NCBI GenBank assembly: GCA_016936615.1
Contig: JAFGXN010000131.1
Coordinates: forward strand, 1-60,169
Direction of reading: 5' to 3'
Origin: Spirochaetales bacterium
GTDB taxonomy: Bacteria; Spirochaetota; Spirochaetia; JAFGXN01
DNA length: 60,169 bases
In this document: positions 9,450 through 34,020 of the stretch, in pieces
How the letters are laid out: every line of letters begins with the position of its first letter
Numbering within the stretch: position 1 is the stretch's first letter
Notes under the pieces: generated by a model
The model's database searches: none
The model's input: only the letters and a program-made list of their open reading frames with translations
What the model was told of the DNA's origin: nothing
Position numbers and translations under genes: made by a program

Positions 9450-9472
9450 AAAAAAGCCCCCTTGCGGGAGCT
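9450..9472 (-). terminator. intrinsic terminator ending the ald operon / VOC gene
   Basis: Minus strand AGCTCCC-GCAA-GGGGGCT-TTTTT. Confidence 0.7.
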
Positions 9473-9511: not shown

Positions 9512-10027
9512 TTATTTATAATAAGCCTTGAAAGGCCCTTTTCTCATAATAAAACCAACCAACTTTCCAAGGACTCTAATCGCAAAGTAGTTGAATCGCA
9601 AATCAATAATCTCAATCAAATTACCATCTGGATCTCTGAAGAAGAACCATGCAGCACCGTCAGTCTCCTGAGGCTCGCACAACAGTTCAACATCACCTCT
9701 TGCTTTCAACTTATCATACCATTTGTAGGCATTGTGAGCATCGAAAGTAAAGTGAGTAGTTCCTGGTCTATTCCATGCATGGTCAAATGGTGCTGTCTCA
9801 GAGAACTCAAAAATCTCCACGACTCCGCCCTTTGGCGCTCGAAGAAAGCCTAGCTTCACGCTAATCCCTTCTTTCAGATTATATAATTTTTTCTTACCTG
9901 CAAGTGTTGCAGCATCTAACTCAGACACAGAAAGTAGTGGCATCTTAAACACATCCCAATACCATTTAACCGCCTTGTCAAAATCCTTAACAGTAATTCC
10001 AACATGACTAAGTGACTTTATCCTCAT
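9512..10027 (-). CDS. VOC (glyoxalase / methylmalonyl-CoA epimerase-like) metalloprotein
   Basis: SHVGITV, VEIFEF, THFTF, FFRDPDGNLIEI give the His/Glu/His/Glu ligand set; second ATG (10027) has the better RBS spacing. Confidence 0.88.
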   Translation of the reverse strand: MRIKSLSHVGITVKDFDKAVKWYWDVFKMPLLSVSELDAATLAGKKKLYNLKEGISVKLGFLRAPKGGVVEIFEFSETAPFDHAWNRPGTTHFTFDAHNAYKWYDKLKARGDVELLCEPQETDGAAWFFFRDPDGNLIEIIDLRFNYFAIRVLGKLVGFIMRKGPFKAYYK

Positions 10028-10046
10028 ATTCATCTCCTTTTTTTAT

Positions 10047-10084
10047 AAAAAAAGCACAGCTGTCCCACAAATAAGACAGCTGCT
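10047..10084 (-). terminator. terminator-like hairpin between SCP2-like gene and VOC gene
   Basis: Minus strand GCAGCTGTC-loop-GACAGCTGTGC followed by T7, ending just before the VOC RBS. Confidence 0.6.
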
Positions 10085-10089
10085 CAAAA

Positions 10090-10884
10090 TTATTTGATCA
10101 TTGAACCAACTAGAAGCATGTGATCACCAAGCTGCGCACCAAACTCTGGTCCACCAACCATGGTCAACTTACCTTCGACTGTTGACTTGATCATATCATC
10201 AACTTCCAACAATATACCTAGCGCACTTCGCGGAGAGTCAAACTTCATTGTGAAGAATGGCATACTTCGCTTATAGACACCTCTAGCTGCCCTTGAATTT
10301 CCTGCTTTAATTCTAATATAAGCAGAAAGATCTGGATAACCGTCAACTGCCCAAGCATACACACGGTCTGGACTCTTCTGTGTCCAAGCCTTGATAGCTG
10401 GATGACCAAGTTTGTTCAAAGTACTAATTCCTGATGACAACAGATAGAACATACATCTTGTCAAAAGAGCCTGAGTCTCAACATCCTTAGGTGGTTGTTT
10501 TGCTCCAAGCAATCCAGACATTGTCAACAATGCAGACAAGAACCCGAAGTGACTCAACATCCCTTTTGGAAGAGGTAAAATTTTTCCTTTAAAAAAACCA
10601 TTCATATGCTCTCTTGATTTGAACAAGAGCTCACTAGTAGGCTTTCCGTCAAACACACCTCTTACAACTGTCCAAGCTCCCTCTTCAACTACAAAGTGCA
10701 TAGCCTCTTTCTCACCATTATGCATACAAGCAACCTGGTGCACCGCGCTTTTCCCCTCCCACTTCTTAGCAAGCTTGGGAGTATTCTCGACAATAGTCTT
10801 TAATACAGGAAGTACTGCGTTAAAAAATAGTTTGTTCGAATATAAAGTAGCTTGTTCGTTTGTCATTTCTACATTTTCGCCCAT
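10090..10884 (-). CDS. hypothetical protein with two predicted SCP2-like (lipid-binding) domains
   Basis: Pattern AYIRIKAG...PFFTMKFDS...GIL...DMIKSTVEGKLTMVG resembles the SCP2 signature (two beta strands, then L.G.LD...A...GKL...G); a similar pattern occurs in the N-half. Confidence 0.55.
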   Translation of the reverse strand: MGENVEMTNEQATLYSNKLFFNAVLPVLKTIVENTPKLAKKWEGKSAVHQVACMHNGEKEAMHFVVEEGAWTVVRGVFDGKPTSELLFKSREHMNGFFKGKILPLPKGMLSHFGFLSALLTMSGLLGAKQPPKDVETQALLTRCMFYLLSSGISTLNKLGHPAIKAWTQKSPDRVYAWAVDGYPDLSAYIRIKAGNSRAARGVYKRSMPFFTMKFDSPRSALGILLEVDDMIKSTVEGKLTMVGGPEFGAQLGDHMLLVGSMIK

Positions 10885-10898
10885 TTTACGCCTCCTGA

Positions 10899-11906
10899 TT
10901 AAATTTCATCGTCCCAGTTATCATCTTCCTCAAAATCTGCACCCATAAGCTCTCGAGCTGCAGCAAGAATTCCATTTGCACCATAACCATAGTAGTCCAT
11001 CAAGTCTTCATGAAGACCGATAATTGAGAACACATCTGGAACACCAAGTTTCTTGAAAGCACAAGCCTTACCAGTCTCGACCATAACCTCAGCAACAGCA
11101 GAACCAAGTCCACCATAAATATTATGATCTTCAACAGTAATAATTCTTCTTGTATCATGAACAGCCTTCTTAATTGCATCTGCATCAATTGGCTTGATTG
11201 TATGCATATTAAGAACTCTTGCTCTAATTCCTTCACCTTCAAGAACCTTTGCAGCATCCATAGCTCTAGCAACACAAGCACCAGTAGCGATGATAGTAAG
11301 ATCAGTTCCCTCTTTCATCTCCTGAGCCTTTCCTAGCTCGAATTTACACTCGTCCATAGACTTGTAAACTGGCATGTCAAAACCTCGATTGATTCTCAAA
11401 TAAACAGGACCTGGAGTCTCATAAGCAGCAGCAACTGCCTTTGCAGTTTCAAAACCATCACAAGGGACAATAACCTTACAATTAGCCATAGTTCTCATTA
11501 TTGCGATATCTTCTGTACAGTGGTGAGTAGAACCAGCCTGACCAAAAGAAAGACCTGCATGAGTTGCAATCATCTTTACATTCAAGTTCTGATAACAAAT
11601 ATCAGTGTGAATCTGATCTAGACCTCTCATTGCTGTAAAAATAGCAAATGTTGAAGCAAAAGGAACAAAGCCCATCTGAGCAAGCCCTGCTGCCATACCA
11701 AACATATTCTGCTCAGCAATACCTGCATTAAACAATCTGTCAGAAAACTTATCCAACAAAGCTCCAATCTTAGTAGACTTTGCTAAGTCAGCTGAAAGCC
11801 CAACAACCTTTGAATCTTGTTCAGCAAGCTGAACCAAAGTACTTCCATACATCTCCGCAGTTGTCATGTTAGTAGCTTCAAGCATTGTATAATTTAAATT
11901 AGCCAT
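10899..11906 (-). CDS. split transketolase, C-terminal (pyrimidine-binding/C) subunit
   Basis: ADLAKST, GIAEQNMFG, THAGLSFGQAGSTHH.TED, GPVYLR, TIKPID, TVEDH...GGLG. Confidence 0.92.
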   Translation of the reverse strand: MANLNYTMLEATNMTTAEMYGSTLVQLAEQDSKVVGLSADLAKSTKIGALLDKFSDRLFNAGIAEQNMFGMAAGLAQMGFVPFASTFAIFTAMRGLDQIHTDICYQNLNVKMIATHAGLSFGQAGSTHHCTEDIAIMRTMANCKVIVPCDGFETAKAVAAAYETPGPVYLRINRGFDMPVYKSMDECKFELGKAQEMKEGTDLTIIATGACVARAMDAAKVLEGEGIRARVLNMHTIKPIDADAIKKAVHDTRRIITVEDHNIYGGLGSAVAEVMVETGKACAFKKLGVPDVFSIIGLHEDLMDYYGYGANGILAAARELMGADFEEDDNWDDEI

Positions 11907-12766
11907 TATTTACCCCCCTTTGCTTTTCTTGCATCGTGATAAGCATCGATATCTGCAACAGATTTCTCAACACCAGAAGCATCGATTGACGCATAGTGAT
12001 ACTCGTACTTATCCTGCATCCAACTGATACCACAACCTTTGAAAGTATTAGCAATAATAACAACTGGCTTATCTTTTGCAGCCTTAGCCTTATCAAAAGC
12101 CTCTGCAATCTGATACATATTGTGTCCATCAATCTCCACAACATCAAAACCAAAAGCTCTCCACTTGTCAGCAAATGGCTCAAGCTTCATAACCTCTTCA
12201 GTTGGTCCATCAATCATACATCTGTTTCTATCTACGATAGGAATAACATTTGTAGCTTTAAAATGAGAAATTGCCATTGCAGCTTCCCAGATTGAACCTT
12301 CATCACACTCACCATCACCCATGATAACATAGATGTTTATATCTTTTTTCAAAAGCTTAGCACCAAGAGAATTTCCCAATGCAATAGAAAGCCCATGTCC
12401 AAGAGAACCAGAAGAAGCATCAAGACCTGGAACCTTATTAACATCCAAGTGCATTCCAAGCTTACTCTCTGTATGGTTATAAGTCTTTAACCACTCTTTA
12501 TCAAAAAAACCCTTATCAGCAAGAACTGGAGCATAACCAACTCCAATATGACCTTTACTTACAATAACTCGGTCTCTATCTTCCCATTTAGGATTCTTAA
12601 CATCTACTCTTGCATATTTGTAGTAGATCATTGTCAAAATATCAGTAGCACTCAAAGCACCACCAATATGTCCACCACCAGCCCAACTTACTGTCTGGAC
12701 AGTTAACTTTCTTAACTCTCGTGCCTTATCTTCTAGCATGTTAAAATCTTGTTCAGAAATACCCAT
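11906..12766 (-). CDS. split transketolase, N-terminal ThDP-binding subunit
   Basis: GGHIGGALS, DRVIVSKGH, GSLGHGLS, ThDP motif GDGECDEGSIWEA...DRN; stop overlaps next ATG. Confidence 0.93.
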   Translation of the reverse strand: MGISEQDFNMLEDKARELRKLTVQTVSWAGGGHIGGALSATDILTMIYYKYARVDVKNPKWEDRDRVIVSKGHIGVGYAPVLADKGFFDKEWLKTYNHTESKLGMHLDVNKVPGLDASSGSLGHGLSIALGNSLGAKLLKKDINIYVIMGDGECDEGSIWEAAMAISHFKATNVIPIVDRNRCMIDGPTEEVMKLEPFADKWRAFGFDVVEIDGHNMYQIAEAFDKAKAAKDKPVVIIANTFKGCGISWMQDKYEYHYASIDASGVEKSVADIDAYHDARKAKGGK

Positions 12767-12776
12767 ATAAACCCCC

Positions 12777-14039
12777 TTATTTTCTTAGCTTATCAGGATT
12801 GTTCTTAGCAACAATACTATAAGCAATGTCTGCAATCTCTAAAGTCTTCTTAATATCTGCATCTGTCAACGAGCAGTTTGTGAAATGATTATGATGACTT
12901 ACAAAGAAAGCGCCCCTCTTAGTACACTCAGCACAGAACTCCTGCTGCATAAATAATGAATCTTCATTAGCTATTCTCATATAGAACATAGAAGGAACAC
13001 CAGAGATCTTCATATCTATTCCATAAGATTTGCCAATCTCAACTAGACCTGAAGTTAATTTTTCACCCCTCTCTATCATTATCTTTGGAGCATTTATCTT
13101 TCTCATTTCAGTGATACAAGCAATAGCAGCTGCCATTGGAACCGCACTTGACCAGTAACTTCCAGTAAAGAATACATTTGAAGCTGCGCCCTTAAGCCCT
13201 TCACGACCAACGACAGCAGAGATATTATATCCATTAGCTAAAGCCTTACAGTAACATGCCAAATCTGGCTTGAACCCGAAATACTTAGCACTTCCAGCAA
13301 GATCTAATCTAAAACCACATCGAACATCATCGATAATAAGAATAATTCCATTATCATCACAAATCTTTCGAATAGCCTGCCAGTACCCTTCAGCTGGTAA
13401 AACATTATCCTGAAAAACTCTATGGTCATAAGGACAGCTGATAAAAGCAGCAATTTCCCCCGGATTAGCCTCTACTGCTCTCTTGACAGCCTCTACATCA
13501 TTCCAAGGAACAATAATATTATTAGAAACATCCGCAGTAGCAACTCCAGCATTTCCTCGTCCCTGAGTCCAAGGAGCAACACCATGGTAACCACCTTCAA
13601 CTCGAATAATCTTCTCACGACTAGTCTCTGCTCTTGCTACCATAACAGCAAAAGATGTAGCATCTCCACCATTTTTCATGAAAAAAGACCAATCAGCAAT
13701 TTCGATTGTATCTACTAGCAACTCAGCCAAATCAACCTGAAGAGCACCAGGAAGAGCCATACAGTTACCCTTCTTCATCTGAGCAAGTGCAGCTTGATCA
13801 ACTATGTCATTGTTATAACCAAGTACGTTAGGACCATATGCACACATATAATCTATGTACTCGTTTCCATCAATATCCCAAAAATGCGAATCTTTTACCC
13901 TATCAGCGTAAAAAGGAAAATCGCTAGTTGGAATAAACTGAGACTGTACTGGTCCAAGATGTCCTGGAATACCAGTAGGTAATACCTTTACGGCTCTTTT
14001 AAAAAGCTCGATTGATTTATCGTTTTTATATACTTCCAT
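12777..14039 (-). CDS. class III PLP aminotransferase, FumI/GSA-aminomutase-like
   Basis: DIDGNEYIDY, KNGGDATS, YHG, DDVRCGFR, PDLACYCKALANG (PLP Lys), TGSYWSSAVPMAAAI. Confidence 0.9.
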   Translation of the reverse strand: MEVYKNDKSIELFKRAVKVLPTGIPGHLGPVQSQFIPTSDFPFYADRVKDSHFWDIDGNEYIDYMCAYGPNVLGYNNDIVDQAALAQMKKGNCMALPGALQVDLAELLVDTIEIADWSFFMKNGGDATSFAVMVARAETSREKIIRVEGGYHGVAPWTQGRGNAGVATADVSNNIIVPWNDVEAVKRAVEANPGEIAAFISCPYDHRVFQDNVLPAEGYWQAIRKICDDNGIILIIDDVRCGFRLDLAGSAKYFGFKPDLACYCKALANGYNISAVVGREGLKGAASNVFFTGSYWSSAVPMAAAIACITEMRKINAPKIMIERGEKLTSGLVEIGKSYGIDMKISGVPSMFYMRIANEDSLFMQQEFCAECTKRGAFFVSHHNHFTNCSLTDADIKKTLEIADIAYSIVAKNNPDKLRK

Positions 14040-14051
14040 TTCTAAACTCCC

Positions 14052-14807
14052 CTATGCAAGATAATTAGCAACCATGCCCAAAATTGGATCAATATGTTCT
14101 ACCATTGGGATAAATCCTCTCATAGACATATCACCAAGTCCCATTGCTGTAAAAGTATCAAGCTCATTATTTAAAATTTTATGAGCAACCTCTAAGCTAC
14201 TAAAAGACAAAATTGCTCTTGGATTTGAGCAAGAACTCTTCTTCGCAGTTAATTTTCCACTCTTTACTGAAATTGTAATAGAAGGACCATTAGTTACAGC
14301 CACAAGAAGATCTCCGTCATGCAATTGCTTTGCCTGACTCATACCAGCTGGATCATAATTTGCAATCTCGCACAAGGCATGAAAAGCAGCGTAAGCAGTC
14401 ATCTCAGTATTAGCCTTAAAATAATCTTTATTAGCTAATAACTCTTTTGTTGGCTTTAGGTAAAAGCCTAACTTATCTGCTAACTGAGTAAACGGTCCTG
14501 TAAGAAATCCAATCTTTGTAAAACCCTTTACTGGGATAGGATTTGCTTCCCCGTCTACCATTTTATTAAAATGTTCTGGAGATTTGAAAAACAAGGAAAT
14601 ATTACTCTTGTGTTTTCCATGTTTCATCTCTGCCTTTCCATTATCAAAGGATAAGTTCGCACTTGGACCACCCTTTACATTAAACTGAATAGCAATCTTC
14701 TTACCTGCAACAAGATTTGCACATTCTTTGTCATTTACAACAAGATATTCTATATTCTTCAAAACGCCAAACATATTACATCTTGCTTTCACTGATTGAT
14801 TAACCAT
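14052..14807 (-). CDS. hypothetical protein with two predicted SCP2-like domains
   Basis: IQFNVKGGPSANLSFDNG and ITISVKSG...PRAILSFSS...KILNNELDTFTAMGLGDMSMRG SCP2-like patterns; distant paralog of 10090..10884. Confidence 0.6.
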   Translation of the reverse strand: MVNQSVKARCNMFGVLKNIEYLVVNDKECANLVAGKKIAIQFNVKGGPSANLSFDNGKAEMKHGKHKSNISLFFKSPEHFNKMVDGEANPIPVKGFTKIGFLTGPFTQLADKLGFYLKPTKELLANKDYFKANTEMTAYAAFHALCEIANYDPAGMSQAKQLHDGDLLVAVTNGPSITISVKSGKLTAKKSSCSNPRAILSFSSLEVAHKILNNELDTFTAMGLGDMSMRGFIPMVEHIDPILGMVANYLA

Positions 14808-14840: not shown

Positions 14841-15956
14841 TTATTTTACTACATTCTCTGTAGCATGATAATCAAAATCAAATGCGTCTGCAACGCCTTT
14901 ACAGGTAATCTTACCCTTGTAGACATTCAATCCGCCAGCTAATGCCTTGTTCATACTGCAAGCAACTTCAACACCATGCTGAGCAAGCAACAAACCATAG
15001 CTCAATGTTGTTCCAGTCAAGGCAACAGTAGAAGTTCTAGCCACTGCACCAGGCATATTTGCAACACAGTAACATACAATACCATCAACAATGAAGACTG
15101 GATCATCGTGATAAGTTGCTTTTGTAATCTCAAAACATCCGCCCTGATCTACAGCAACATCCACCATCACAGCACCTTTCTTCATCAACTTCATATGTTC
15201 ATTTCTAACAACCTTTGGCGCCTTCTTTCCAGGAATCAAGACCGCACCAATAATCACATCAGACTCAGCACAAACCTTTCTAACATTTCCCTCATTACTA
15301 TAAAGAGTCGAAACCCTTCCCCCAAATATATCATCGATATAAGCAAGACGTTGTGCATTTACATCAAGAATTGTAACATCTGCACCAAGCCCAACTGCCA
15401 TCTTTGCCGCATTCAATCCAACAACACCACCACCAATTACAGCAACCTTTCCTCGCTCTACTCCAGGGACACCACCAAGAAGAACTCCTCTTCCACCAAA
15501 TGGCTTCTCAAGATACTTCGCACCCTCTTGAGCACTTAACCTTCCCGCAATCTCACTCATTGGTTTTAGACAAGGCAAAGAACCATCAGCCTCCTGAATA
15601 GTCTCATAAGCGATAGCCTTAACATTACTCTTCAACAAAGCCTCAGTAAGTGGCTTGTCAGCAGCTAGATGCAAGTAAGTATAAATAATCAAATCCTCTC
15701 TGAAATATTTATATTCAGCTTCGAGTGGTTCCTTAACCTTAATAATCATCTCTGAATCAGCCCAAATCTTTGCAGCTGAATCTACAATAGAAGCTCCCGC
15801 CTCGACATACTCTTGATCTGAGAAACCAGCTCCTTCACCTGCTGATTTTTCAATCATCACACTATGTCCTGCTTTAACATAAGCCACTACACTACTTGGT
15901 GTAAGCCCAACCCGGTATTCATGCTTTTTAATTTCTTTTACACAACCTATTTTCAT
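14841..15956 (-). CDS. ald: alanine dehydrogenase
   Basis: [55 protein letters not shown]. Confidence 0.97.
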
Positions 15957-16074: not shown

Positions 16075-16752
16075 ATGCAAGATACAAACAGCTCTATTAA
16101 AAAATATTATAAACCGACTTTTGAAAAAATTCCAAGCGAAAAAAGAAAAAGAATCATAGATACTGCAATTTCCGAGTTCGCTGCGAACGGGTACAATGCG
16201 ACAAGTATCAATACAATTGCAAAAAAAGCTTGCATTTCTATCGGTTCTATGTATAGTTACTTTGACTCAAAGGAGAGCCTCTTTATGACCCTGCTTGACC
16301 AAGGGTACAAACTCCTAAGCGAGGCTCTCGGCGAAGTAATAAAAGACAGCGGAGACTTCTACTCGAAGTTCAAAAAATTCCTAAAGATCTCACACAAATA
16401 CGCTACAGACTTCCGAGAGATAAACCAAATATACATCGACATCTCCACAGAGGGCTTAAGCCACCTAGCAAATGAGATGTCTCTCAAGATGGAGAGCGAC
16501 ACCTCCGAAGTCTACCACAAACTCATAGAGCAAGCCAAGTCAGAAGGAATAATTTCCGAAGATATAGACTCCAACATTGCTGCATTCTGCCTCGACAACA
16601 TTGTGATGATGGTTCAATTCTCATACGCATCAGCCTACTATCGTGAACGTATGAAATTTTACCTGCAAACAGACACAATCGAAAATGATGAAGAGATTAT
16701 AAATGGAATAGTTTATTTTATCGAGAATGGATTAAGACCGAGGAACAAATGA
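16075..16752 (+). CDS. TetR/AcrR family regulator
   Basis: IIDTAISEFAANGYNATSINTIAKKACISIGSMYSYFDSKESLF HTH. Confidence 0.93.
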   Translation: MQDTNSSIKKYYKPTFEKIPSEKRKRIIDTAISEFAANGYNATSINTIAKKACISIGSMYSYFDSKESLFMTLLDQGYKLLSEALGEVIKDSGDFYSKFKKFLKISHKYATDFREINQIYIDISTEGLSHLANEMSLKMESDTSEVYHKLIEQAKSEGIISEDIDSNIAAFCLDNIVMMVQFSYASAYYRERMKFYLQTDTIENDEEIINGIVYFIENGLRPRNK

Positions 16753-25366: not shown

Positions 25367-27916
25367 ATGAAGATAAGAAATATTCTATTAGTATATATTT
25401 CTACAGTTCTCCTAGCCTGCCCAAACACAACAAATCTACCCGAAAATTTTAAAGATAGCAATCTAGACCCTGTATCATATTTATTAATGCCATTTGGAAA
25501 AATTGAAAATGTACGAGCAAGCTCAGGAGAAAAAGGCCTTATCAATATCTCTTGGGAGAGACAAGCAAAGGCAGACGCCTATGTTGTAGAGAGAGCGACA
25601 GAGATTGAAGGCAATTATGAAGTAGTTGCAAGCAAGGTTCTTGGACTATCATGGTCTGACACAGGAATAACCGAGATGGGAAGCGACAACAAGTACTACT
25701 ACAGAGTAAAAGGTGTCCTTCTTGATTGGAAAAAAGCGGTAAAGGCATCAGGGCCCTACTCTGTTCCTGCCGAAGGTTACTGCATAGATCCAGCAAGCGA
25801 TTTCAATGTATTAGTAGAGAACATCCAAGTTAATTACAACTTTGACAACCCACAGCAGATTGTGAACTTTCTAGAAATAACATGGGATGAAGAGGAGTTT
25901 GCAAATCCAAAAGACCGCAAAGTCGAATATTATAAGATTCTTAGAGCAGTTGACAATGCAGGTACACCTGGAGATTTTTCTTTTCTAAAGAATGAAGCAG
26001 GTTATGATGTAACAGGGCTGAAATCACCAATATATGACTACTACACAGAGCCTGGCACTAAATATCACTATAAGATTGTTCCATGCAAGATAGATCCAGT
26101 TTTGAATAGAGAAATTTCAGCATCGCCTCAACCAGAGGTTCCAGTCAACATCACAACTCTAATCAGACCTAGCGCGGTGCGACCAACTGTAGGAACTAAT
26201 CCTGGAACACCCTCATTAGAGATTGAATGGGATGACTACCCTAACAAATATAAATATTATCTATACAAATCCAATGAACTTGGCGGGGATCAAACCCTAA
26301 TCTATGAAGGTGGAGATCTAAACTTCCCTGATACTGACATAACAGCAGGAAGCCAGTACTTCTACGGACTATCAGTAAGTTTTATGATATACATAGGCAC
26401 TGATAGCTACGAAGTAAAGACCCCTATACCTATGCCAGTGCCAGCAATGTATAATGCACCACCAGAACATGTGGAAGATCCAATTCTTGGAGAAGGTAAA
26501 GACTCTGTAACTCTCAAATGGAAGAGAGCAGAGGGACAAGCAGACTCCCCTTACTACAATCTATTCTATTCGACACAGCAAGACACAGGATTCAAACTTG
26601 TCGAAACACAAATCAAGGATGGAAAACCAGGTCTAAGCTATGATGAAGGAACCAAAACTTTTACCTATAACTTTACAAATACAACTATTCCTAGCGGATA
26701 TGTCTATTTCAGAATACATAATCTAAACGCAGAAGAGGTACAATCTTCTCAATATTTACCATTAACAGGATATTTCTTGCCAGAGAACCCTAACAACTTC
26801 CTTGCAAGTGGCGGAATGGGAGAGACTCCTGCTGGAGACTTTGTTGAATTAACATGGGAGAATCCAGGCGATGAGGGAATAGAGAAGTTTATCGTTTACA
26901 AGCGACCTGTGATTTTCAACAAAGAACAGGACGGGGGTAAGACTTGGGTGAAAATTCTAAGACGAGAGTTCAGCTCTACTATTCCTTTTACACTAGCACC
27001 GATTGCTGGACATCCAGAATTTGCTTTTGTAGGAGAAGTAACAAACGATGGAAGCAACTATTTCACATTAACTGACAGCTCACTTCGTCCAGGATTACAC
27101 GAATACATAATAACCTCTCACTCTGCAGGGCTAGAAGCTGTAACAGCTGGATACACAAGATATCTCAAAGATGATGGACACAGGACAATCTCTGACAAAG
27201 AGTTTATACAAGAGACCAACAAATTCTTCAGATTTGCCATAACAACAATTGAGAATGGAGACAATGGGAATGAGCTTGAAAGCCCAATTTCAGTTGAGCA
27301 AAGAGATGGCGAGGACACACCAACTGGTGGATTTTTCTCACACGATATAGACACAAAAATCGGATCAACATTTAGACAAAAGTATTATCTAAACGACTAC
27401 AACACTGGATATCTCACACTAAATACCCCTGATTTCTCAGCTCTGCCAGGTGACGACCTGCATTCTAGCGAATCAGGACAAAACTCATTTGATCCTCACT
27501 CTTTGTCTACAGTTGCCTTCCTAGATGACCACGGACGTAACGGGATAACCGGTCACCCAAAAAGAGACTCTATGAGAGTAGGCCGTATCCAAGTCTCAGG
27601 ACTATATCAAGGTGAAGTAGTATACAAGATTGGAAGAAATTGGTGGGCAAGACACAACGCACAAGGTTGTGGGAAGGCAGACTATGGAACAACAGCCAAC
27701 GTATCAGATATCTATGGCGGAGATCGTGACCAAGGATACTTTGACGTAAAGCAAGCTGGTGCTTCTGACTTTACAAGAATTGGATATGAGGATGGAATGA
27801 GTGCTACATACGAGAACTCAAACGAATCTACATACAATAACGCAATCAACGCTCAAGAGCAGATGGTAGAACCATTCTACAATGCTGACCAGCCATATTA
27901 TCCGGTTTGGAATTAA
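25367..27916 (+). CDS. large fibronectin type III repeat lipoprotein
   Basis: Lipobox LLAC; repeated ISW/ITW/IEW/LKW/LTW ... Y.I.R ... D ... YYY.V FN3 patterns. Confidence 0.8.
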   Translation: MKIRNILLVYISTVLLACPNTTNLPENFKDSNLDPVSYLLMPFGKIENVRASSGEKGLINISWERQAKADAYVVERATEIEGNYEVVASKVLGLSWSDTGITEMGSDNKYYYRVKGVLLDWKKAVKASGPYSVPAEGYCIDPASDFNVLVENIQVNYNFDNPQQIVNFLEITWDEEEFANPKDRKVEYYKILRAVDNAGTPGDFSFLKNEAGYDVTGLKSPIYDYYTEPGTKYHYKIVPCKIDPVLNREISASPQPEVPVNITTLIRPSAVRPTVGTNPGTPSLEIEWDDYPNKYKYYLYKSNELGGDQTLIYEGGDLNFPDTDITAGSQYFYGLSVSFMIYIGTDSYEVKTPIPMPVPAMYNAPPEHVEDPILGEGKDSVTLKWKRAEGQADSPYYNLFYSTQQDTGFKLVETQIKDGKPGLSYDEGTKTFTYNFTNTTIPSGYVYFRIHNLNAEEVQSSQYLPLTGYFLPENPNNFLASGGMGETPAGDFVELTWENPGDEGIEKFIVYKRPVIFNKEQDGGKTWVKILRREFSSTIPFTLAPIAGHPEFAFVGEVTNDGSNYFTLTDSSLRPGLHEYIITSHSAGLEAVTAGYTRYLKDDGHRTISDKEFIQETNKFFRFAITTIENGDNGNELESPISVEQRDGEDTPTGGFFSHDIDTKIGSTFRQKYYLNDYNTGYLTLNTPDFSALPGDDLHSSESGQNSFDPHSLSTVAFLDDHGRNGITGHPKRDSMRVGRIQVSGLYQGEVVYKIGRNWWARHNAQGCGKADYGTTANVSDIYGGDRDQGYFDVKQAGASDFTRIGYEDGMSATYENSNESTYNNAINAQEQMVEPFYNADQPYYPVWN

Positions 27917-27927
27917 TAGGAGAGGAA

Positions 27928-30321
27928 ATGAAAAAGTTAAATAGTTTTATATTAGCAATTTTTACAATCTTTCTATTTGCCTGTCAGCCACCTGAGATAG
28001 ACAACATTTACAGTCATCTATTTGGAGAGACAGAGATAAAATTAGAAGAGAAGTTCAAATTTGATGCAAACTCAGGTGATTACGGAACCCTTGACTTATC
28101 AATAGGTACCGCTGAGCCACAAGTTACCCAGGGGACTGATATATCAAAGCTCGTAGTGACATGGGCGGATATACCAGGAGCTACTTTCTGCGCAATATAC
28201 AGAGTAGAAGCCGAGGTTGAGAGAGACGAGAACACAGTAGTGACAAAGATCTCTTTTCCAGAAGAGGCAGAACCTATAAAGGTAGGCGAAGTCGCTGCAG
28301 CTGCAAAGAGATTTGAAGATACAAGTGTAGCAAACAACAAGATTTACTACTATGCAGTAAAAGGAATCTCAGAAGATAAAACACGAGAAGGGCTGCTAAG
28401 CTATTTTTATTACGGATATATGATAGGTTATCCAGAAAATCTTAGAGCAGATGACAAGGAGTCAAAAGAAAAGATTGGAATCTCTTGGGATGCAATCTAT
28501 GGAGCCAATAACTATCAGATATTCAGAGCTGAAAATGATCCAGAAGCAAGCTATGAGTTTGTTGGCAAATCTTTTTCTAACTACTTCGAAGACCACGCAA
28601 AAAGCAACAATCCACCAAGCGCAGGAATCAAATACTACTACAAGGTGAAGGCGTTCAGAAATGGAGTAATAGAATCAGGCTTCAGCCTCGCAAGTAATCC
28701 AGGAGAAATTGTCTCTGCTTTTGCTTGTGATCCTCCAGAGAAGGTCTACGCGTCACGAGCTGAGTACAATGACACAGTCAAAGTCTGGTGGGACCTCGCT
28801 GATGGCGCAGATAGCTATGTAGTATATAGAGCAGATTCTCCAGATGCTATTTTCGAAGCAATAACAGATATCGGAGATGTAACTGAGAATGCATACCTTG
28901 ATACAGAGATAGAAAATGGAAAAGACTACTATTACCAAGTATCATCGATAAATGCGGCAGGAATGGAAGGAACAAGATCTAAGTTTGAGCCTTTCGCAGA
29001 GACTGACTTTGATGGATGTGATTACCGAAGCCAGGGTTATGCCTTTGATACACCAGAACAACCTCTAGTAGCCTTTATTCCAAATGGTGATGGCGGCAGC
29101 CTATTCGTCTATTGGAATACTGTAAGAAAAGCAGAGACCTACTCAGTCTACTACAAAGATACAACAGATCAAGAGACTGCCCTAATCGAAGATTCAACAG
29201 AGACCTTTTATAAGGCAGATCTCTCAGCAGAGTTCGCAAACTTTGAATACTATATCAGAGCAAAGCGCGCTGGAACTGAAGGGGAAGTACTAAGCAAAGA
29301 CTCTCAATCAAAACTCCCTAACAATGGAGCACCAGAAAACCTCTCAGGAAGCGTAAAAGAGTATGAACTTCTAGGAGATGGGCAAATCAAAGGAAAGAAC
29401 ACTATATCCTGGAAATCTGCACAAAACATTCAATACAGAGTATTACGGAAACTTCCAGGAGAGAGCAGCTTCACATTGATAGCAGACAATGTAACCTCTA
29501 GCCCATACATCGATACAAATATCCCAGAACGGGGCTATGAATTCTTTCACAATCTTCTACCTTCAGTCGAGCCACAAGGAAGCGAAGATGGGAACCAAGC
29601 ACTGCAAAGATCACTCTCTGCTCGATACAAGATAGAAGCAGTATTCGATGCAGAAAACAACATCTTTGCAACAAGCGATGAAGTCCTAGCAATGCCAATG
29701 CCAACACACAAAGAGTTCTTCTTTATAATCCAATTCCTAGATGATTGTGCTACAAATAAATTAACAAATCAGAGTGATTATGAATCAACTACACCTGGAG
29801 ACGAAACAGATCCAGGATTTTTATCAGGTAAAATCGATTTTTCTGCAAAGATTCAAAGCCTTTCAAGCGCAAATATAAAGTTTAAGTTCACGAACTATTC
29901 AGACTGGCATGGATTAGCCCTAACTGGTGAATACAATTCTCTTCAACACTCTAACCCAGGACAACCACCAGGAGGATCTAGTATAAACACTTGCCATACA
30001 GATAGCGTATCACTCATAGGGCTTTTCAACATAAAAAGAAATGTTAGTTTACGACTAAACCCTGACAACTCTTCTTATGACGGATCTATCAAAATAAACA
30101 TTATTGGAGTAGGAGACTATACAATTATTGTATCTCCAGAAGACAACATCTTCCACTCTTATGACGGAACTGACAGAATCCCAGGAGGAAGAAATGCTTC
30201 TGGCTCGTCAGGAAACGAAAACACCTACGACTCAGGAACTCTTTCTAAGTTTGCAATACTAACTGTAAGAGGCGACAATCTAAGTGCAGCAGGTGAGCGA
30301 GCTGGAACACCAATAAATTAA
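27928..30321 (+). CDS. large fibronectin type III repeat lipoprotein
   Basis: Start moved to ATG 27928; lipobox LFAC; FN3 patterns VTW..IPGA...IYR, ISWD..YGA..YQIFR, YYYKVKA, YYYQVS. Confidence 0.8.
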   Translation: MKKLNSFILAIFTIFLFACQPPEIDNIYSHLFGETEIKLEEKFKFDANSGDYGTLDLSIGTAEPQVTQGTDISKLVVTWADIPGATFCAIYRVEAEVERDENTVVTKISFPEEAEPIKVGEVAAAAKRFEDTSVANNKIYYYAVKGISEDKTREGLLSYFYYGYMIGYPENLRADDKESKEKIGISWDAIYGANNYQIFRAENDPEASYEFVGKSFSNYFEDHAKSNNPPSAGIKYYYKVKAFRNGVIESGFSLASNPGEIVSAFACDPPEKVYASRAEYNDTVKVWWDLADGADSYVVYRADSPDAIFEAITDIGDVTENAYLDTEIENGKDYYYQVSSINAAGMEGTRSKFEPFAETDFDGCDYRSQGYAFDTPEQPLVAFIPNGDGGSLFVYWNTVRKAETYSVYYKDTTDQETALIEDSTETFYKADLSAEFANFEYYIRAKRAGTEGEVLSKDSQSKLPNNGAPENLSGSVKEYELLGDGQIKGKNTISWKSAQNIQYRVLRKLPGESSFTLIADNVTSSPYIDTNIPERGYEFFHNLLPSVEPQGSEDGNQALQRSLSARYKIEAVFDAENNIFATSDEVLAMPMPTHKEFFFIIQFLDDCATNKLTNQSDYESTTPGDETDPGFLSGKIDFSAKIQSLSSANIKFKFTNYSDWHGLALTGEYNSLQHSNPGQPPGGSSINTCHTDSVSLIGLFNIKRNVSLRLNPDNSSYDGSIKINIIGVGDYTIIVSPEDNIFHSYDGTDRIPGGRNASGSSGNENTYDSGTLSKFAILTVRGDNLSAAGERAGTPIN

Positions 30322-32892: not shown

Positions 32893-32979
32893 AAAAACTA
32901 ACAGAAATCTAACAGACAACTAATATTGTTGATTTTTTAGAAATTTTCTTTTATGATTAATAATAACATGGAGGGTTTG

Positions 32980-34020
32980 ATGAAAACTAAAGTAAAAATA
33001 TTTTTATGCCTAATTTTCCTTTTTGCGATTTTTCCTGTCATCGCAGAAGAAGAAAAAAAAGAAGAAGCAAGCGAGACTAAGACAGAGCAAGCACAAGCAG
33101 AAGAGACTAAGAAAAAAGTTGAACCAAAAATCTCTTTTCAATTATCTGAATATATAGAAGTCCATAGTAATGGATTTGATTTCTCTGGAACAACAATTGG
33201 ATTCTTTCAGGATGCCTTCTTCTCAAGAACATCAGCAAAGGCGAATGTTGCTCTACCTTTTGACTTTTACACTATGAACATTTGGGTCGAAGATGACTTT
33301 GATTTCAGACTAAATTATAAAGAAGATTTATCGACTGAAAATGATATAAACTTAAGAGGACGAAATAGAATCTATCTTGGAATGAACAACAACTTCAAGT
33401 TTAAAAACACAACCTTTGGCCTTAATCTTGAGCTAAGGTTAGAATCAGACATGAGGGATCTTAGTGGAACACAATCAAAAAAAACCGCAATAAGATTTAA
33501 TCCTAATATTACGATTGGCGGAAAATACGACTGCGGATTTGCATGGAGAACAGCAACATTTTTCTCATTCATCTTTGACTCAACTAGCTACGGAACAGAT
33601 ACCCCACTAAGCCTCTTTGACTTCGAAGCATACTACAACTTCTCATACGATTTTATGCAACATGTCGAAGGTTCATCAGCTAAAGGGTGGATATTCCTAG
33701 ACAACCAGTTAGCAACTTATATTGGCGGAGTCTACACTGATAGCCCAGCTCCCGTCTACCTATATGATATTCTAACTACAGGACTTAACTTTGACATCTC
33801 TGGATTCCAGCCTAAGATTGGCGCAGCATTCTGGTTCAACAAACATAGTTCTTTTTATGGCTCATACGGAGGGCTAGCCCTAGGTCTTGGCTATAAAAAA
33901 GATAATTTATCAATAAATGTTGATTACATCGGCGGTCGAGCAATGACCGAAGAGACTGCTACAGGATACAGCGCGAACTGGCTTAGCAGGATTACAACCT
34001 CAGTCAAGTTCAGCTTCTAA
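32980..34020 (+). CDS. probable outer-membrane beta-barrel protein
   Basis: Start moved to ATG 32980; signal peptide, charged linker, aromatic-rich amphipathic strands, C-terminal VKFSF. Confidence 0.65.
   Translation: MKTKVKIFLCLIFLFAIFPVIAEEEKKEEASETKTEQAQAEETKKKVEPKISFQLSEYIEVHSNGFDFSGTTIGFFQDAFFSRTSAKANVALPFDFYTMNIWVEDDFDFRLNYKEDLSTENDINLRGRNRIYLGMNNNFKFKNTTFGLNLELRLESDMRDLSGTQSKKTAIRFNPNITIGGKYDCGFAWRTATFFSFIFDSTSYGTDTPLSLFDFEAYYNFSYDFMQHVEGSSAKGWIFLDNQLATYIGGVYTDSPAPVYLYDILTTGLNFDISGFQPKIGAAFWFNKHSSFYGSYGGLALGLGYKKDNLSINVDYIGGRAMTEETATGYSANWLSRITTSVKFSF

Follow-up and report, generated by a model that had tools for sequence, protein, structure and literature searches.

A split transketolase-like enzyme is encoded in a contig of a Spirochaetales bacterium (JAFGXN010000131.1, assembly GCA_016936615.1; the whole stretch of 60,169 nt analysed is hereafter called the window), and its C-subunit carries an alanine residue, Ala124, at the position of Asp469 of Escherichia coli transketolase (TktA). 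Comparison with related sequences indicates that this alanine is part of a natural, co-adapted remodelling of the acceptor pocket, tied to a conserved operon that is undescribed in the literature searched. We hold with moderate confidence that Ala124 characterises a separate and conserved family, made up of split transketolase-like enzymes dependent on thiamine diphosphate (ThDP), and that the aldehyde side of their pocket no longer reads sugars.

In ordinary transketolases Asp469 hydrogen-bonds the C2-hydroxyl of the acceptor, and Asp477 is presumably its counterpart in the yeast enzyme. The C-subunit of the window is translated from a minus-strand open reading frame (ORF) at 10899–11906 and its 335 residues contain MIATHAGLSFGQAGSTHHCTEDIAIM; the stretch ATHAGLSFGQAGSTHHCTED includes Ala124. 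The transketolase motif THAGLSFGQAGSTHH, within which lies G122-Q-A-G-S-T-H-H129, has its Ala124 codon at 11535–11537, and the codons of Thr115–His129 occupy 11520–11564 (minus strand), Gln123, Ala124 and His129 standing for E. coli E468, D469 and Q474 respectively. Three alignments agreed on this placement. Against the split transketolase of Carboxydothermus hydrogenoformans (6yaj, E 2.8e-82), HAGLTVGEDGASHQ faced HAGLSFGQAGSTHH of the window with Ala124 opposite the Asp469 position; human transketolase, aligned to the window C-subunit, has HCGVSIGEDGPSQM at the same positions; and BLASTP matched residues 461–474 of E. coli K-12 TktA, THDSIGLGEDGPTHQ, with the window motif THAGLSFGQAGSTHH, giving the pairs D469/A124, E468/Q123, Q474/H129, H461/H116 and H473/H128. 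A preliminary description, made from the DNA letters alone, had placed an alanine codon at 11535–11537 in GQAGSTHH and equated it with D469. The translation confirmed the first point and the three alignments the second, with alanine and no aspartate at the D469 equivalent against both TktA and the split enzyme, the comparison that the description had proposed.

The relatives were then scanned with one genome per species, which gave at least 598 relatives, and the best 80 loci were kept for the genome-locus counts below. These 80 span Spirochaetota, many Bacillota (Lutispora, Vallitalea, Oceanirhabdus, and gut and rumen Acutalibacteraceae and Oscillospiraceae), Leptospiraceae, Desulfobacteraceae and others, with orthologue identities of 58–76% between Spirochaetota, Bacillota, Desulfobacterota and others. 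Ala124 was found in 79/79 full-length orthologues, as was His129, and Gln123 was found in 73/79. Since a G-Q-A-G pattern was also matched in 119 of the 120 closest database proteins (68–100% identical), Ala124 is not the product of chance or of a sequencing slip.

The residues that carry out catalysis were retained throughout. The C-subunit equivalents of E411, H461, H473, R520, S385 and D381 were invariant in all 79 orthologues, the N-subunit equivalents of H26, H66, H100, D155 and N185 in 75/75 loci, and His257 of the N-subunit (H261 equivalent) in 31/31 family members. In window numbering, the catalytic and donor-binding histidine residues are H33, H73, H106 and H257 of the N-subunit (E. 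coli H26, H66, H100 and H261) and H128 of the C-subunit (H473), and the ThDP/metal motif GDG...N and the cofactor-activating glutamate are present as D151, N181 and E65 (D155, N185 and E411). Because these catalytic and cofactor residues are invariant, the catalytic machinery is intact and the change is confined to the aldehyde-reading part of the pocket. The phosphate-binding set kept S44, H116 and R174 (S385, H461 and R520 equivalents; 79/79), and its fourth position, that of R358, was mostly alanine (Ala 70, Ser 6, Thr 2 and Arg 1 across the 79 orthologues). In the window this position is Ala17 (codon 11856–11858, minus strand), in MTTAEMYG as against IATREAYG in 6yaj and IATRKAYG in the human enzyme, residue 17 being mapped to R358 by MAFFT. 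Leucine at the 382 position was kept in 77/79 orthologues.

For the C-subunit, 31 family sequences were compared with 60 canonical representatives chosen for having Asp and the R358, H461 and R520 equivalents, and the changes specific to the family were Arg358→Ala, Thr388→Ile, Val/Leu466→Phe, Glu468→Gln, Asp469→Ala and Gln474→His. The comparison for the N-subunit was small, its canonical side consisting of nine loci from the relatives plus E. coli TktA, and gave Tyr72→Ala, Arg91→Asn, Pro101→Leu, Thr106→Val, Ser/Gln188→Met and Gly262→Tyr. The Arg91 position is Asn97 in the window (codon 12476–12478, minus strand; LKNFRQLHSKTPGHPE aligned with LKTYNHTESKLGMHLD), asparagine in 31/31 family rows, and Arg (8) or Lys (2) in the ten canonical rows. 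The E. coli enzyme has a salt bridge between Asp469 and Arg91, which is abolished in the D469T mutant, where new pockets open (PMC5073344). By alignment, both partners of this bridge, one in each subunit, are uncharged in the family, and because both have been replaced we read the pocket as co-adapted and not as the site of a single substitution. More broadly, the polar set that grips a 2-hydroxy aldose phosphate has been neutralised through Asp469→Ala, Arg91→Asn, Arg358→Ala, Glu468→Gln and Val/Leu466→Phe. The preliminary description had seen in Ala124 a natural version of the engineered D469 point change; this view did not hold, as the enzyme belongs to a deep lineage without any Asp in which Arg91→Asn, Arg358→Ala, Val/Leu466→Phe, Glu468→Gln, Gln474→His and Gly262→Tyr are linked to the alanine. 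The family also has an acidic C-terminal tail, MGADFEEDDNWDDEI (C-subunit residues 321–335; 10902–10946, minus strand), which is a gap in 54/60 canonical representatives and in which Trp331 and Asp333 were invariant in 31/31 members; it might serve to dock a partner protein, for instance one of the SCP2 proteins or the aminotransferase described below.

We next consider how common the loss of Asp469 is among split transketolases. In an alignment of the 150 nearest representatives of 50%-identity clusters, the D469 position held Asp in 79 and another residue in 71 (two fragments included), the replacements comprising Leu (17), Ala (14), Gly (11) and Asn (7) among others. The Asp-bearing representatives kept R358 in 72/79, H461 in 69/79 and R520 in 74/79 cases, and the Asp-less ones kept R358 in 40/71 and H461 in 20/71. 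Thus Asp loss is common in annotated split transketolases, yet on these counts it points to non-canonical enzymes as opposed to the ordinary sugar-phosphate kind. A FastTree tree of 156 rows (148 representatives plus eight family members) separated, at a support of 99, 51 rows without any Asp from 105 rows holding all 79 Asp rows; the window C-subunit fell in a clade of 14 rows, all with Ala (support 97), adjoined by a Gly clade, and a quick IQ-TREE run on a 65-row subsample again placed it in sets without Asp. Read without a root, the tree does not tell which state is ancestral. Absence of Asp is an old trait, found broadly across split transketolase-like proteins. One natural split enzyme in which Leu takes the D469 position, and which converts pentanal well, has already been reported (October 2026; PMC13663882). 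The preliminary description had held that its idea would fall if D-to-A were common in ordinary sugar-phosphate split transketolases; alanine is not a feature of the ordinary enzymes, the Asp-less set being mostly without H461. It had also counted the alanine as independent support for an aminodiol-lipid pathway, and here the support is weaker than claimed, as 71 of the 150 nearest representatives are without Asp.

The alanine tracks with an operon. Across the 80 genome loci the gene order was a tandem-SCP2 protein (251 amino acids), a class III aminotransferase, the N-subunit, the C-subunit and a second tandem-SCP2 protein (264 amino acids). The two subunit genes lay side by side in 79/80 loci; the FumI-like aminotransferase and the first SCP2 gene were found upstream in 62 of the 69 loci with at least 3.2 kb of upstream sequence, and the second SCP2 gene downstream in 74 of the 75 with at least 0.9 kb on that side. 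An orthologue (≥56% identity) was present in 7/40 related genomes, all seven with Ala and with the cassette neighbours, and the next-best split transketolases of the related genomes were at most 46% identical. As a negative control, 20 other split-transketolase genes of relatives were inspected over ~6 kb on each side (less at contig ends): aminotransferase or SCP2 neighbours of the cassette kind were found in 0/20, and the D469 position held Asp in nine, another residue in 11 and Ala in none. An independent test set of 80 metagenome loci, whose sequences are related so that the counts describe clades and not independent events, gave a cassette neighbour for 26/27 loci with Ala, the single exception being a 1.9-kb contig, as against 1/45 with Asp (locus L203), 2/6 with Gly and 1/2 with Ser. 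In this set Ala was constant while the Arg358 position varied by subgroup (Ala, Arg, Lys or Asn). Whether D-to-A goes with the operon had been put forward as a check in the preliminary description, and the metagenome, genome and control loci together answer that it does. The minimal unit consists of the N-subunit, the C-subunit and the 264-residue SCP2 protein, with the aminotransferase module often, not always, attached. For P0127, a more distant member of the Ala clade, no relatives above 49% identity were found in the metagenomes.

In the window, the C-subunit gene, with its Pyr and C-terminal domains, matched PF02779 (135 bits) and PF02780 (107 bits), and the N-subunit gene (11906–12766, minus strand; 286 residues; ThDP/PP domain) matched PF00456 (140 bits) and TktA by BLASTP (E 1e-30); the stop of the latter overlaps the start of the former by 1 nt. 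Next to them lies the class III aminotransferase gene (12777–14039, minus strand; 420 residues; PF00202) of FumI (aminopentol aminotransferase) type. Its best solved relative is FumI itself (6hbs; E 2.2e-89, 303 bits, residues 10–412 of 420 aligned), as compared with 181 bits for the best GSA aminomutase match. The 251-residue protein (14052–14807, minus strand) gave a Pfam SCP2 match of 26.5 bits on its C-terminal half and an AlphaFold model with a pLDDT of 92.9, for which the Foldseek matches were alkylsulfatase SCP2 domains, SCP2 and UbiJ. The 264-residue protein (10090–10884, minus strand; model pLDDT 93.7) was without a Pfam or NCBIfam match, its Foldseek matches were SdsA1, SCP2 and UbiJ, and in the ESM Atlas it fell in ‘hypothetical protein’ clusters only, in one of which 20% of the members carry SCP2. 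For both proteins the SCP2-fold matches had a Foldseek probability of 1.00 and a TM-score to the target of 0.5–0.7 per half, and the two are remote paralogues (BLASTP E 3e-05). They are thus predicted, from the models, to be tandem SCP2 lipid carriers, a result that lends support to the proposal of the preliminary description that the pocket suits an aldehyde without an alpha-hydroxyl, such as a fatty aldehyde.

The first gene of the row encodes an alanine dehydrogenase (14841–15956, minus strand; TIGR00518 505.8 bits, above the cut-off), linked to the cassette only in the window and in 2/80 genome loci (L009 and L066). It probably recycles alanine to pyruvate for the aminotransferase, and its place at the head of the operon is explained by a FumI-type reaction, which takes pyruvate and yields alanine. 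A divergent TetR-family regulator (16075–16752, plus strand; PF00440), of which a homologue adjoins the cassette in 17/80 loci, is likely to be a local repressor; the inverted repeats between its gene and that of alanine dehydrogenase are A/T-rich and unconvincing as an operator. A promoter scan of the operon region gave 22 sites against a shuffle mean of 20.1, no better than chance, and no promoter is claimed. Downstream of the operon lies an accessory gene for a VOC/glyoxalase-family protein (9512–10033, minus strand; PF00903 68 bits), present in 15/80 loci and in 6/7 orthologous loci of relatives. A consensus scan for terminators found nine sites against a shuffle mean of 4.8, among them a hairpin of 12 pairs with a T run directly 3′ of the 264-residue gene (10056–10083, minus strand) and a second terminator-like hairpin 3′ of the VOC gene (9455–9472, minus strand), and the VOC gene may be transcribed partly on its own. 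The VOC protein as an epimerase of the 3-hydroxyl group was dropped as pure speculation, its gene occurring in those 15 loci only. Elsewhere in the window, three large ORFs (849, 804 and 355 residues; 25367–30318 and 32953–34017, plus strand) were without a Pfam match at E 1e-06 and adjoin a 787-residue ORF with a weak GH85 C-terminal domain match.

Besides the TetR and VOC genes, the recurrent accessory genes of the 80 genome loci included one for a 756-residue old-yellow-enzyme/FAD reductase (six loci); all else nearby was housekeeping. The protein joins an old-yellow-enzyme domain to one of FAD/NAD disulfide-reductase type, is encoded between the VOC and TetR genes (L003, L004, L005, L010, L014 and L031; for example L004:10689–12956), and as an enzyme of 2,4-dienoyl-CoA or enoate reductase (BaiCD/BaiH) type could reduce the 2-enal expected from a 4-unsaturated base. 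In the wider Ala clade, cassettes are repeatedly flanked by genes for a Zn alcohol dehydrogenase of ~408 residues, Fe alcohol dehydrogenases, aldehyde:ferredoxin oxidoreductase, aldehyde dehydrogenase, old yellow enzyme and MerR, the last beside the cassette in four annotated metagenome loci. NAD-type aldehyde dehydrogenases adjoin it in L145 and L148. In a His-Ala (HA) subgroup the Zn-dependent alcohol dehydrogenase, of MDR type, stands 3′ of the SCP2 gene, often together with MerR (L152, L154, L203, L173, L150 and L144, and on the opposite strand in L164); its nearest solved relatives are polyol and threonine dehydrogenases, a weak likeness of at most 88 bits. This arrangement suggests, by analogy with DesC of the desABCD operon, a second route to a C2 keto group. 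In several metagenome loci (L152:990–4856, L154, L157 and L158; L150:12062–12676) the transketolase genes are immediately preceded by genes for an aldehyde:ferredoxin oxidoreductase of tungsten type and an Fe alcohol dehydrogenase fused to ferredoxin.

Other neighbours were seen singly or in pairs. Thoeris genes (ThsA with a Macro domain and TIR-like ThsB) and an IS110-family transposase lie just upstream of the cassette on a single metagenome contig (L155:687–2030). In two gut Clostridia loci (L057:3413–4678 and L048) a 422-residue protein of the endonuclease/exonuclease/phosphatase family is encoded upstream; this fold family includes neutral sphingomyelinases, and the link to the cassette is weak. 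The cassette is common in gut and rumen Clostridia, and its cultured carriers include Lutispora saccharofermentans (L004) and Oceanirhabdus seepicola (L014).

What does the remodelled pocket accept? From the genomic context, to which we owe both substrate and direction, we would give an even chance to the enzyme being a catabolic ketol cleaver that acts on a deaminated lipid amino-diol, as opposed to a biosynthetic enzyme. Starting from a sphingoid-like base, a long-chain 2-amino-1,3-diol, the FumI-type aminotransferase would transfer the amino group at C2 to pyruvate, which alanine dehydrogenase would restore. The product, a 1,3-dihydroxy-2-ketone (HOCH2-CO-CH(OH)-R), would have the head of a transketolase donor; ThDP would attack C2, the C2–C3 bond would be cleaved, and a fatty aldehyde R-CHO without an alpha-hydroxyl would leave through the widened, uncharged pocket. 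The two-carbon glycolaldehyde unit left on ThDP would pass to an acceptor, possibly a sugar phosphate bound by Arg520, His461 and Ser385, and the two tandem-SCP2 proteins would ferry the greasy substrate and product. In sister lineages the Zn alcohol dehydrogenase may make the C2 keto group from a 2-hydroxyl, instead of or besides the aminotransferase. Such a scheme would explain why Asp469 and Arg91 are dispensable and have been replaced, because the released aldehyde would offer no alpha-hydroxyl to Asp469, and a donor hydroxylated at C1 would fit the enzyme because the His100 and His473 equivalents are retained. FumI provides a precedent for the first step: it deaminates hydrolysed fumonisin B1, a sphinganine-like C20 polyol, at C2, with pyruvate as the preferred acceptor and 2-oxoglutarate unused, and yields the 2-ketone and alanine (PMC3136697).

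Several observations weigh against this proposal. Three of the four phosphate ligands (Arg520, His461 and Ser385) are invariant, which is unexpected for a purely lipid enzyme and would also fit a small anionic substrate. On stereochemical reasoning, natural D-erythro sphingoid bases are 3R and the ketols of transketolase 3S, and an epimerase or a changed stereopreference would be needed; split transketolases are reported to keep (S)-selectivity (PMC13663882). This may mean that the enzyme actually takes a threo base or some other lipid amino-alcohol, or that the pathway includes an epimerisation. The aminotransferase is absent in 7/69 genome loci and in the K/HA subgroup (L152, L154 and L156–L158), and among the conserved neighbours of the cassette there is no lipid transporter, kinase or lipase. 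The presence of aldehyde:ferredoxin oxidoreductase does not fix the direction, as this enzyme can also form the aldehyde. The Asp-bearing transketolase of L203 also adjoins an SCP2 gene: on this 6069-base metagenome contig the C-subunit keeps Arg358, Glu-Asp and His-Gln, and is followed by an SCP2 gene of the 264-residue type (142 bits), a Zn dehydrogenase and a MerR regulator; its enzyme may be an intermediate form or a recombinant. Finally, GH38 alpha-mannosidase genes, a carbohydrate context, were found beside two members without the aminotransferase (L146:8223–11204 and L167:1819–4773, the latter also with a solute-binding protein).

These points bear on a first alternative, which we consider unlikely: that the enzyme acts not on a lipid but on some small molecule, a polar or anionic 2-amino- or 2-hydroxy-1,3-diol with no hydroxyl in its tail next to the cleaved bond. 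Examples would be a 4-deoxy ketose, an amino-polyol or an aldehyde bearing a phosphonate, sulfonate or carboxylate group, the anionic end being bound by Arg520, His461 and Ser385. The invariance of these three residues (79/79), the Arg or Lys at the R358 position of the HA subgroup, the weak resemblance of the HA-subgroup Zn dehydrogenases to polyol 2-dehydrogenases and ketose reductases (≤88 bits), and the mannosidases and solute-binding protein of L146 and L167 would all be accommodated. A small polar substrate would, however, leave unexplained that the most constant enzyme partners are two dedicated proteins modelled as tandem SCP2 (74/75 loci), and the substitutions run towards uncharged or hydrophobic residues (R to A, T to I, V to F, E to Q, D to A, T106 to V and S/Q188 to M). 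In addition, the substrate of the most closely related aminotransferase of known function is a C20 lipid polyol, and neither a sugar kinase nor a sugar transporter is conserved beside the cassette.

A second alternative keeps the lipid and reverses the flow. A ketol donor (e.g. hydroxypyruvate) and a fatty aldehyde would be condensed, and the aminotransferase, fed with alanine by alanine dehydrogenase, would aminate the 2-ketone. A sphingoid-like aminodiol lipid would thereby be made independently of serine palmitoyltransferase. Both reactions can run either way, and the evidence from the pocket, which cannot tell the direction, fits this reaction pair equally; alanine dehydrogenase can furnish alanine, the aldehyde:ferredoxin oxidoreductase beside some cassettes could turn fatty acids into aldehydes, and engineered transketolase variants take aliphatic aldehydes (PMC5073344, PMC13663882). 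Against such a synthesis, the recurrent neighbours in the 80 genome loci include neither a fatty acyl reductase nor a source of hydroxypyruvate, an N-acyltransferase or a head-group enzyme, the enzyme nearest to the aminotransferase is a catabolic deaminase that hands the amino group to pyruvate, and the alanine dehydrogenase is linked in the window and two further loci only. Local TetR and MerR repressors suggest an inducible accessory pathway, the spread is patchy (7/40 relatives), and NAD-type aldehyde dehydrogenases stand beside the cassette in L145 and L148. The context thus leans towards catabolism because of the deaminase-type aminotransferase, the local repressors, the nearby aldehyde-consuming enzymes, the patchy distribution and the lack of a recurring acyl reductase, donor-making enzyme or N-acyltransferase. 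We judge synthesis to be distinctly improbable, and breakdown roughly three times as probable. Of the aminodiol-lipid synthesis put forward in the preliminary description, the lipid setting is supported, through the SCP2 carriers, and the synthesis is disfavoured, as the closeness to FumI, the TetR and MerR repressors and the aldehyde and alcohol redox neighbours favour breakdown.

A third possibility, which we regard as very doubtful, concerns the class of the enzyme: it would use pyruvate in the manner of DXS or acetoin enzymes, or cleave 1-deoxy 3-hydroxy-2-ketones derived from 1-deoxy (fumonisin-like) amino alcohols, with transfer of a hydroxyethyl and not a dihydroxyethyl unit. The substrate of FumI is indeed a 1-deoxy 2-amino-3-ol, 2S,3S (PMC3136697), which by our own reasoning matches the 3S preference of transketolase, alanine dehydrogenase yields pyruvate, and some split transketolases accept pyruvate (PMC13663882). 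DXS enzymes mostly have Phe or Tyr at the His100 position, His100 marking hydroxylated donors (PMC13663882); the N-subunits of the family have histidine there (His106) in 75/75 cases, and not Phe or Tyr as in 1-deoxy-D-xylulose-5-phosphate (DXP) synthase. The best Pfam and NCBIfam scores were also to transketolase models. PF00456, PF02779 and PF02780 were all above their cut-offs, placing the subunits in the transketolase superfamily, and NF004559 gave 265.9 bits for the C-subunit and 257.8 bits for the N-subunit against a cut-off of 488, which is set for full-length proteins and is a weak test for a split one; the DXS equivalog TIGR00204 scored 204.8 bits, below its cut-off of 465.95. A separate DXS-like gene is present in the genome on contig C16. 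The same genome encodes a full-length transketolase, 46% identical to TktA, with THDSIGVGEDGPTHQ (GEDG), and this separate canonical enzyme may well be the one that serves the pentose phosphate pathway. Within EC 2.2.1.1 the split enzyme departs from the Asp469 and Arg91 feature of transketolases, with Ala124 in 79/79 and Asn97 in 31/31 sequences. That the family is a degenerate, non-catalytic paralogue in which Ala is without functional meaning is extremely improbable: three metagenome-derived split transketolases had trace or no activity in other reactions assayed (PMC13663882), whereas here all examined catalytic and cofactor residues are invariant across phyla, 58–76% identity is held between phyla and the gene order is fixed. 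Two further candidates, a sulfoacetaldehyde/taurine-type pathway (aminotransferase, alanine dehydrogenase and ThDP enzyme) and a glycolyl-carrier role as in saframycin-type clusters, were set aside, there being no conserved sulfur, Pta, acyl carrier protein (ACP) or lipoyl genes in the vicinity.

Returning to catabolic ketol cleavage, we put forward a broader proposal more tentatively, as a possibility on the lower side of even. Anaerobes of several phyla (Spirochaetota, Bacillota including abundant gut and rumen Oscillospiraceae and Acutalibacteraceae, Desulfobacterota and others) might share an undescribed, oxygen-independent breakdown of sphingoid-type bases, in which the 2-amino group would be transaminated, the C2–C3 bond cleaved by the transketolase with SCP2 proteins as carriers, the head-group carbons passed to sugar metabolism and the fatty aldehyde released; Ala469 with Asn91 would then be a signature of such lipid ketolases in any genome. 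The literature searched contains no description of the degradation of sphingoid bases or lipid amino-alcohols by strict anaerobes, and the presence of the five-gene cassette in cultured strains makes the question testable. Cassettes in gut and rumen Clostridia could affect the host pool of bioactive sphingoid bases. For two decades, transketolase engineers have mutated D469, R358 and R520 towards non-hydroxylated hydrophobic aldehydes; the family would be a natural solution that also replaces Arg91, and offers both a scaffold and a design rule. Synthetic aminodiol cascades pair a transketolase with an amine transaminase, as the operon does. The annotation ‘transketolase family protein’ appears to hide a large set of non-sugar transketolases, to judge by the Asp-less representatives counted above.

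No published description of a cassette of split transketolase, aminotransferase and SCP2 genes was found in the limited collection of literature searched, and the comparison is therefore with systems that share parts of it. The split transketolase ChTK of C. hydrogenoformans (6yaj/6yak; PMC7661550) has the same two-gene architecture, fold and ThDP and catalytic residues, and the C-subunits align end to end. ChTK has the canonical GEDG, the R358 equivalent in IATREAYG, and THQ, with none of the R358, S385, D469 and R520 substitutions (PMC7661550); the window family differs in A124, A17, Q123 and H129, in N97 of the other subunit and in the extra acidic tail. Among Asp-less enzymes, pQR2809 is a natural split transketolase that gave the top pentanal conversion among ten split transketolases and took aromatic acceptors (PMC13663882); it has Leu at the D469 position and the equivalent of L382A, unlike the window family with its Ala and its conserved Leu at 382. 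Engineered E. coli D469 variants are changed at the same position, D469T dropping the R91 salt bridge and opening pockets for non-polar and aromatic acceptors (PMC5073344), whereas in the natural family both partners of the bridge and at least five further pocket residues are changed, the change is ancient, and the enzyme probably works in the cleavage direction.

The nearest solved relative of the operon aminotransferase, FumI (6hbs), comes from the catabolic fum cluster of Sphingopyxis sp. MTA144, in which it carries out the pyruvate-dependent C2-deamination of a long-chain polyol (PMC3136697). The enzymes named in the accessible text of that paper are the esterase FumD and FumI, the term ‘transketolase’ is absent from that text, which gives no fate for 2-keto-HFB1 either, and the FumI substrate is 1-deoxy (PMC3136697). 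By analogy, DesAB of Clostridium scindens comes closest in function. This split transketolase is induced by cortisol and has been proposed to cut the HOCH2-CO-C(OH) ketol side chain of a steroid and to pass the two-carbon unit to the pentose phosphate pathway (PMC3735941). As described (PMC3735941, PMC12876203), DesAB resembles the window enzyme in being split and transketolase-like, in belonging to an inducible accessory operon of an anaerobe, in its proposed action on a hydrophobic substrate and in coexisting with separate canonical transketolases. The Zn dehydrogenase DesC of desABCD parallels that found after the cassette in the HA subgroup. The two systems also differ. The desABCD operon, in its accessible descriptions, includes a transporter and has no aminotransferase or SCP2 proteins, and its leaving group is a ketone (a 17-keto steroid) and not an aldehyde; the window operon, unlike desABCD, has neither a transporter nor a Zn dehydrogenase.

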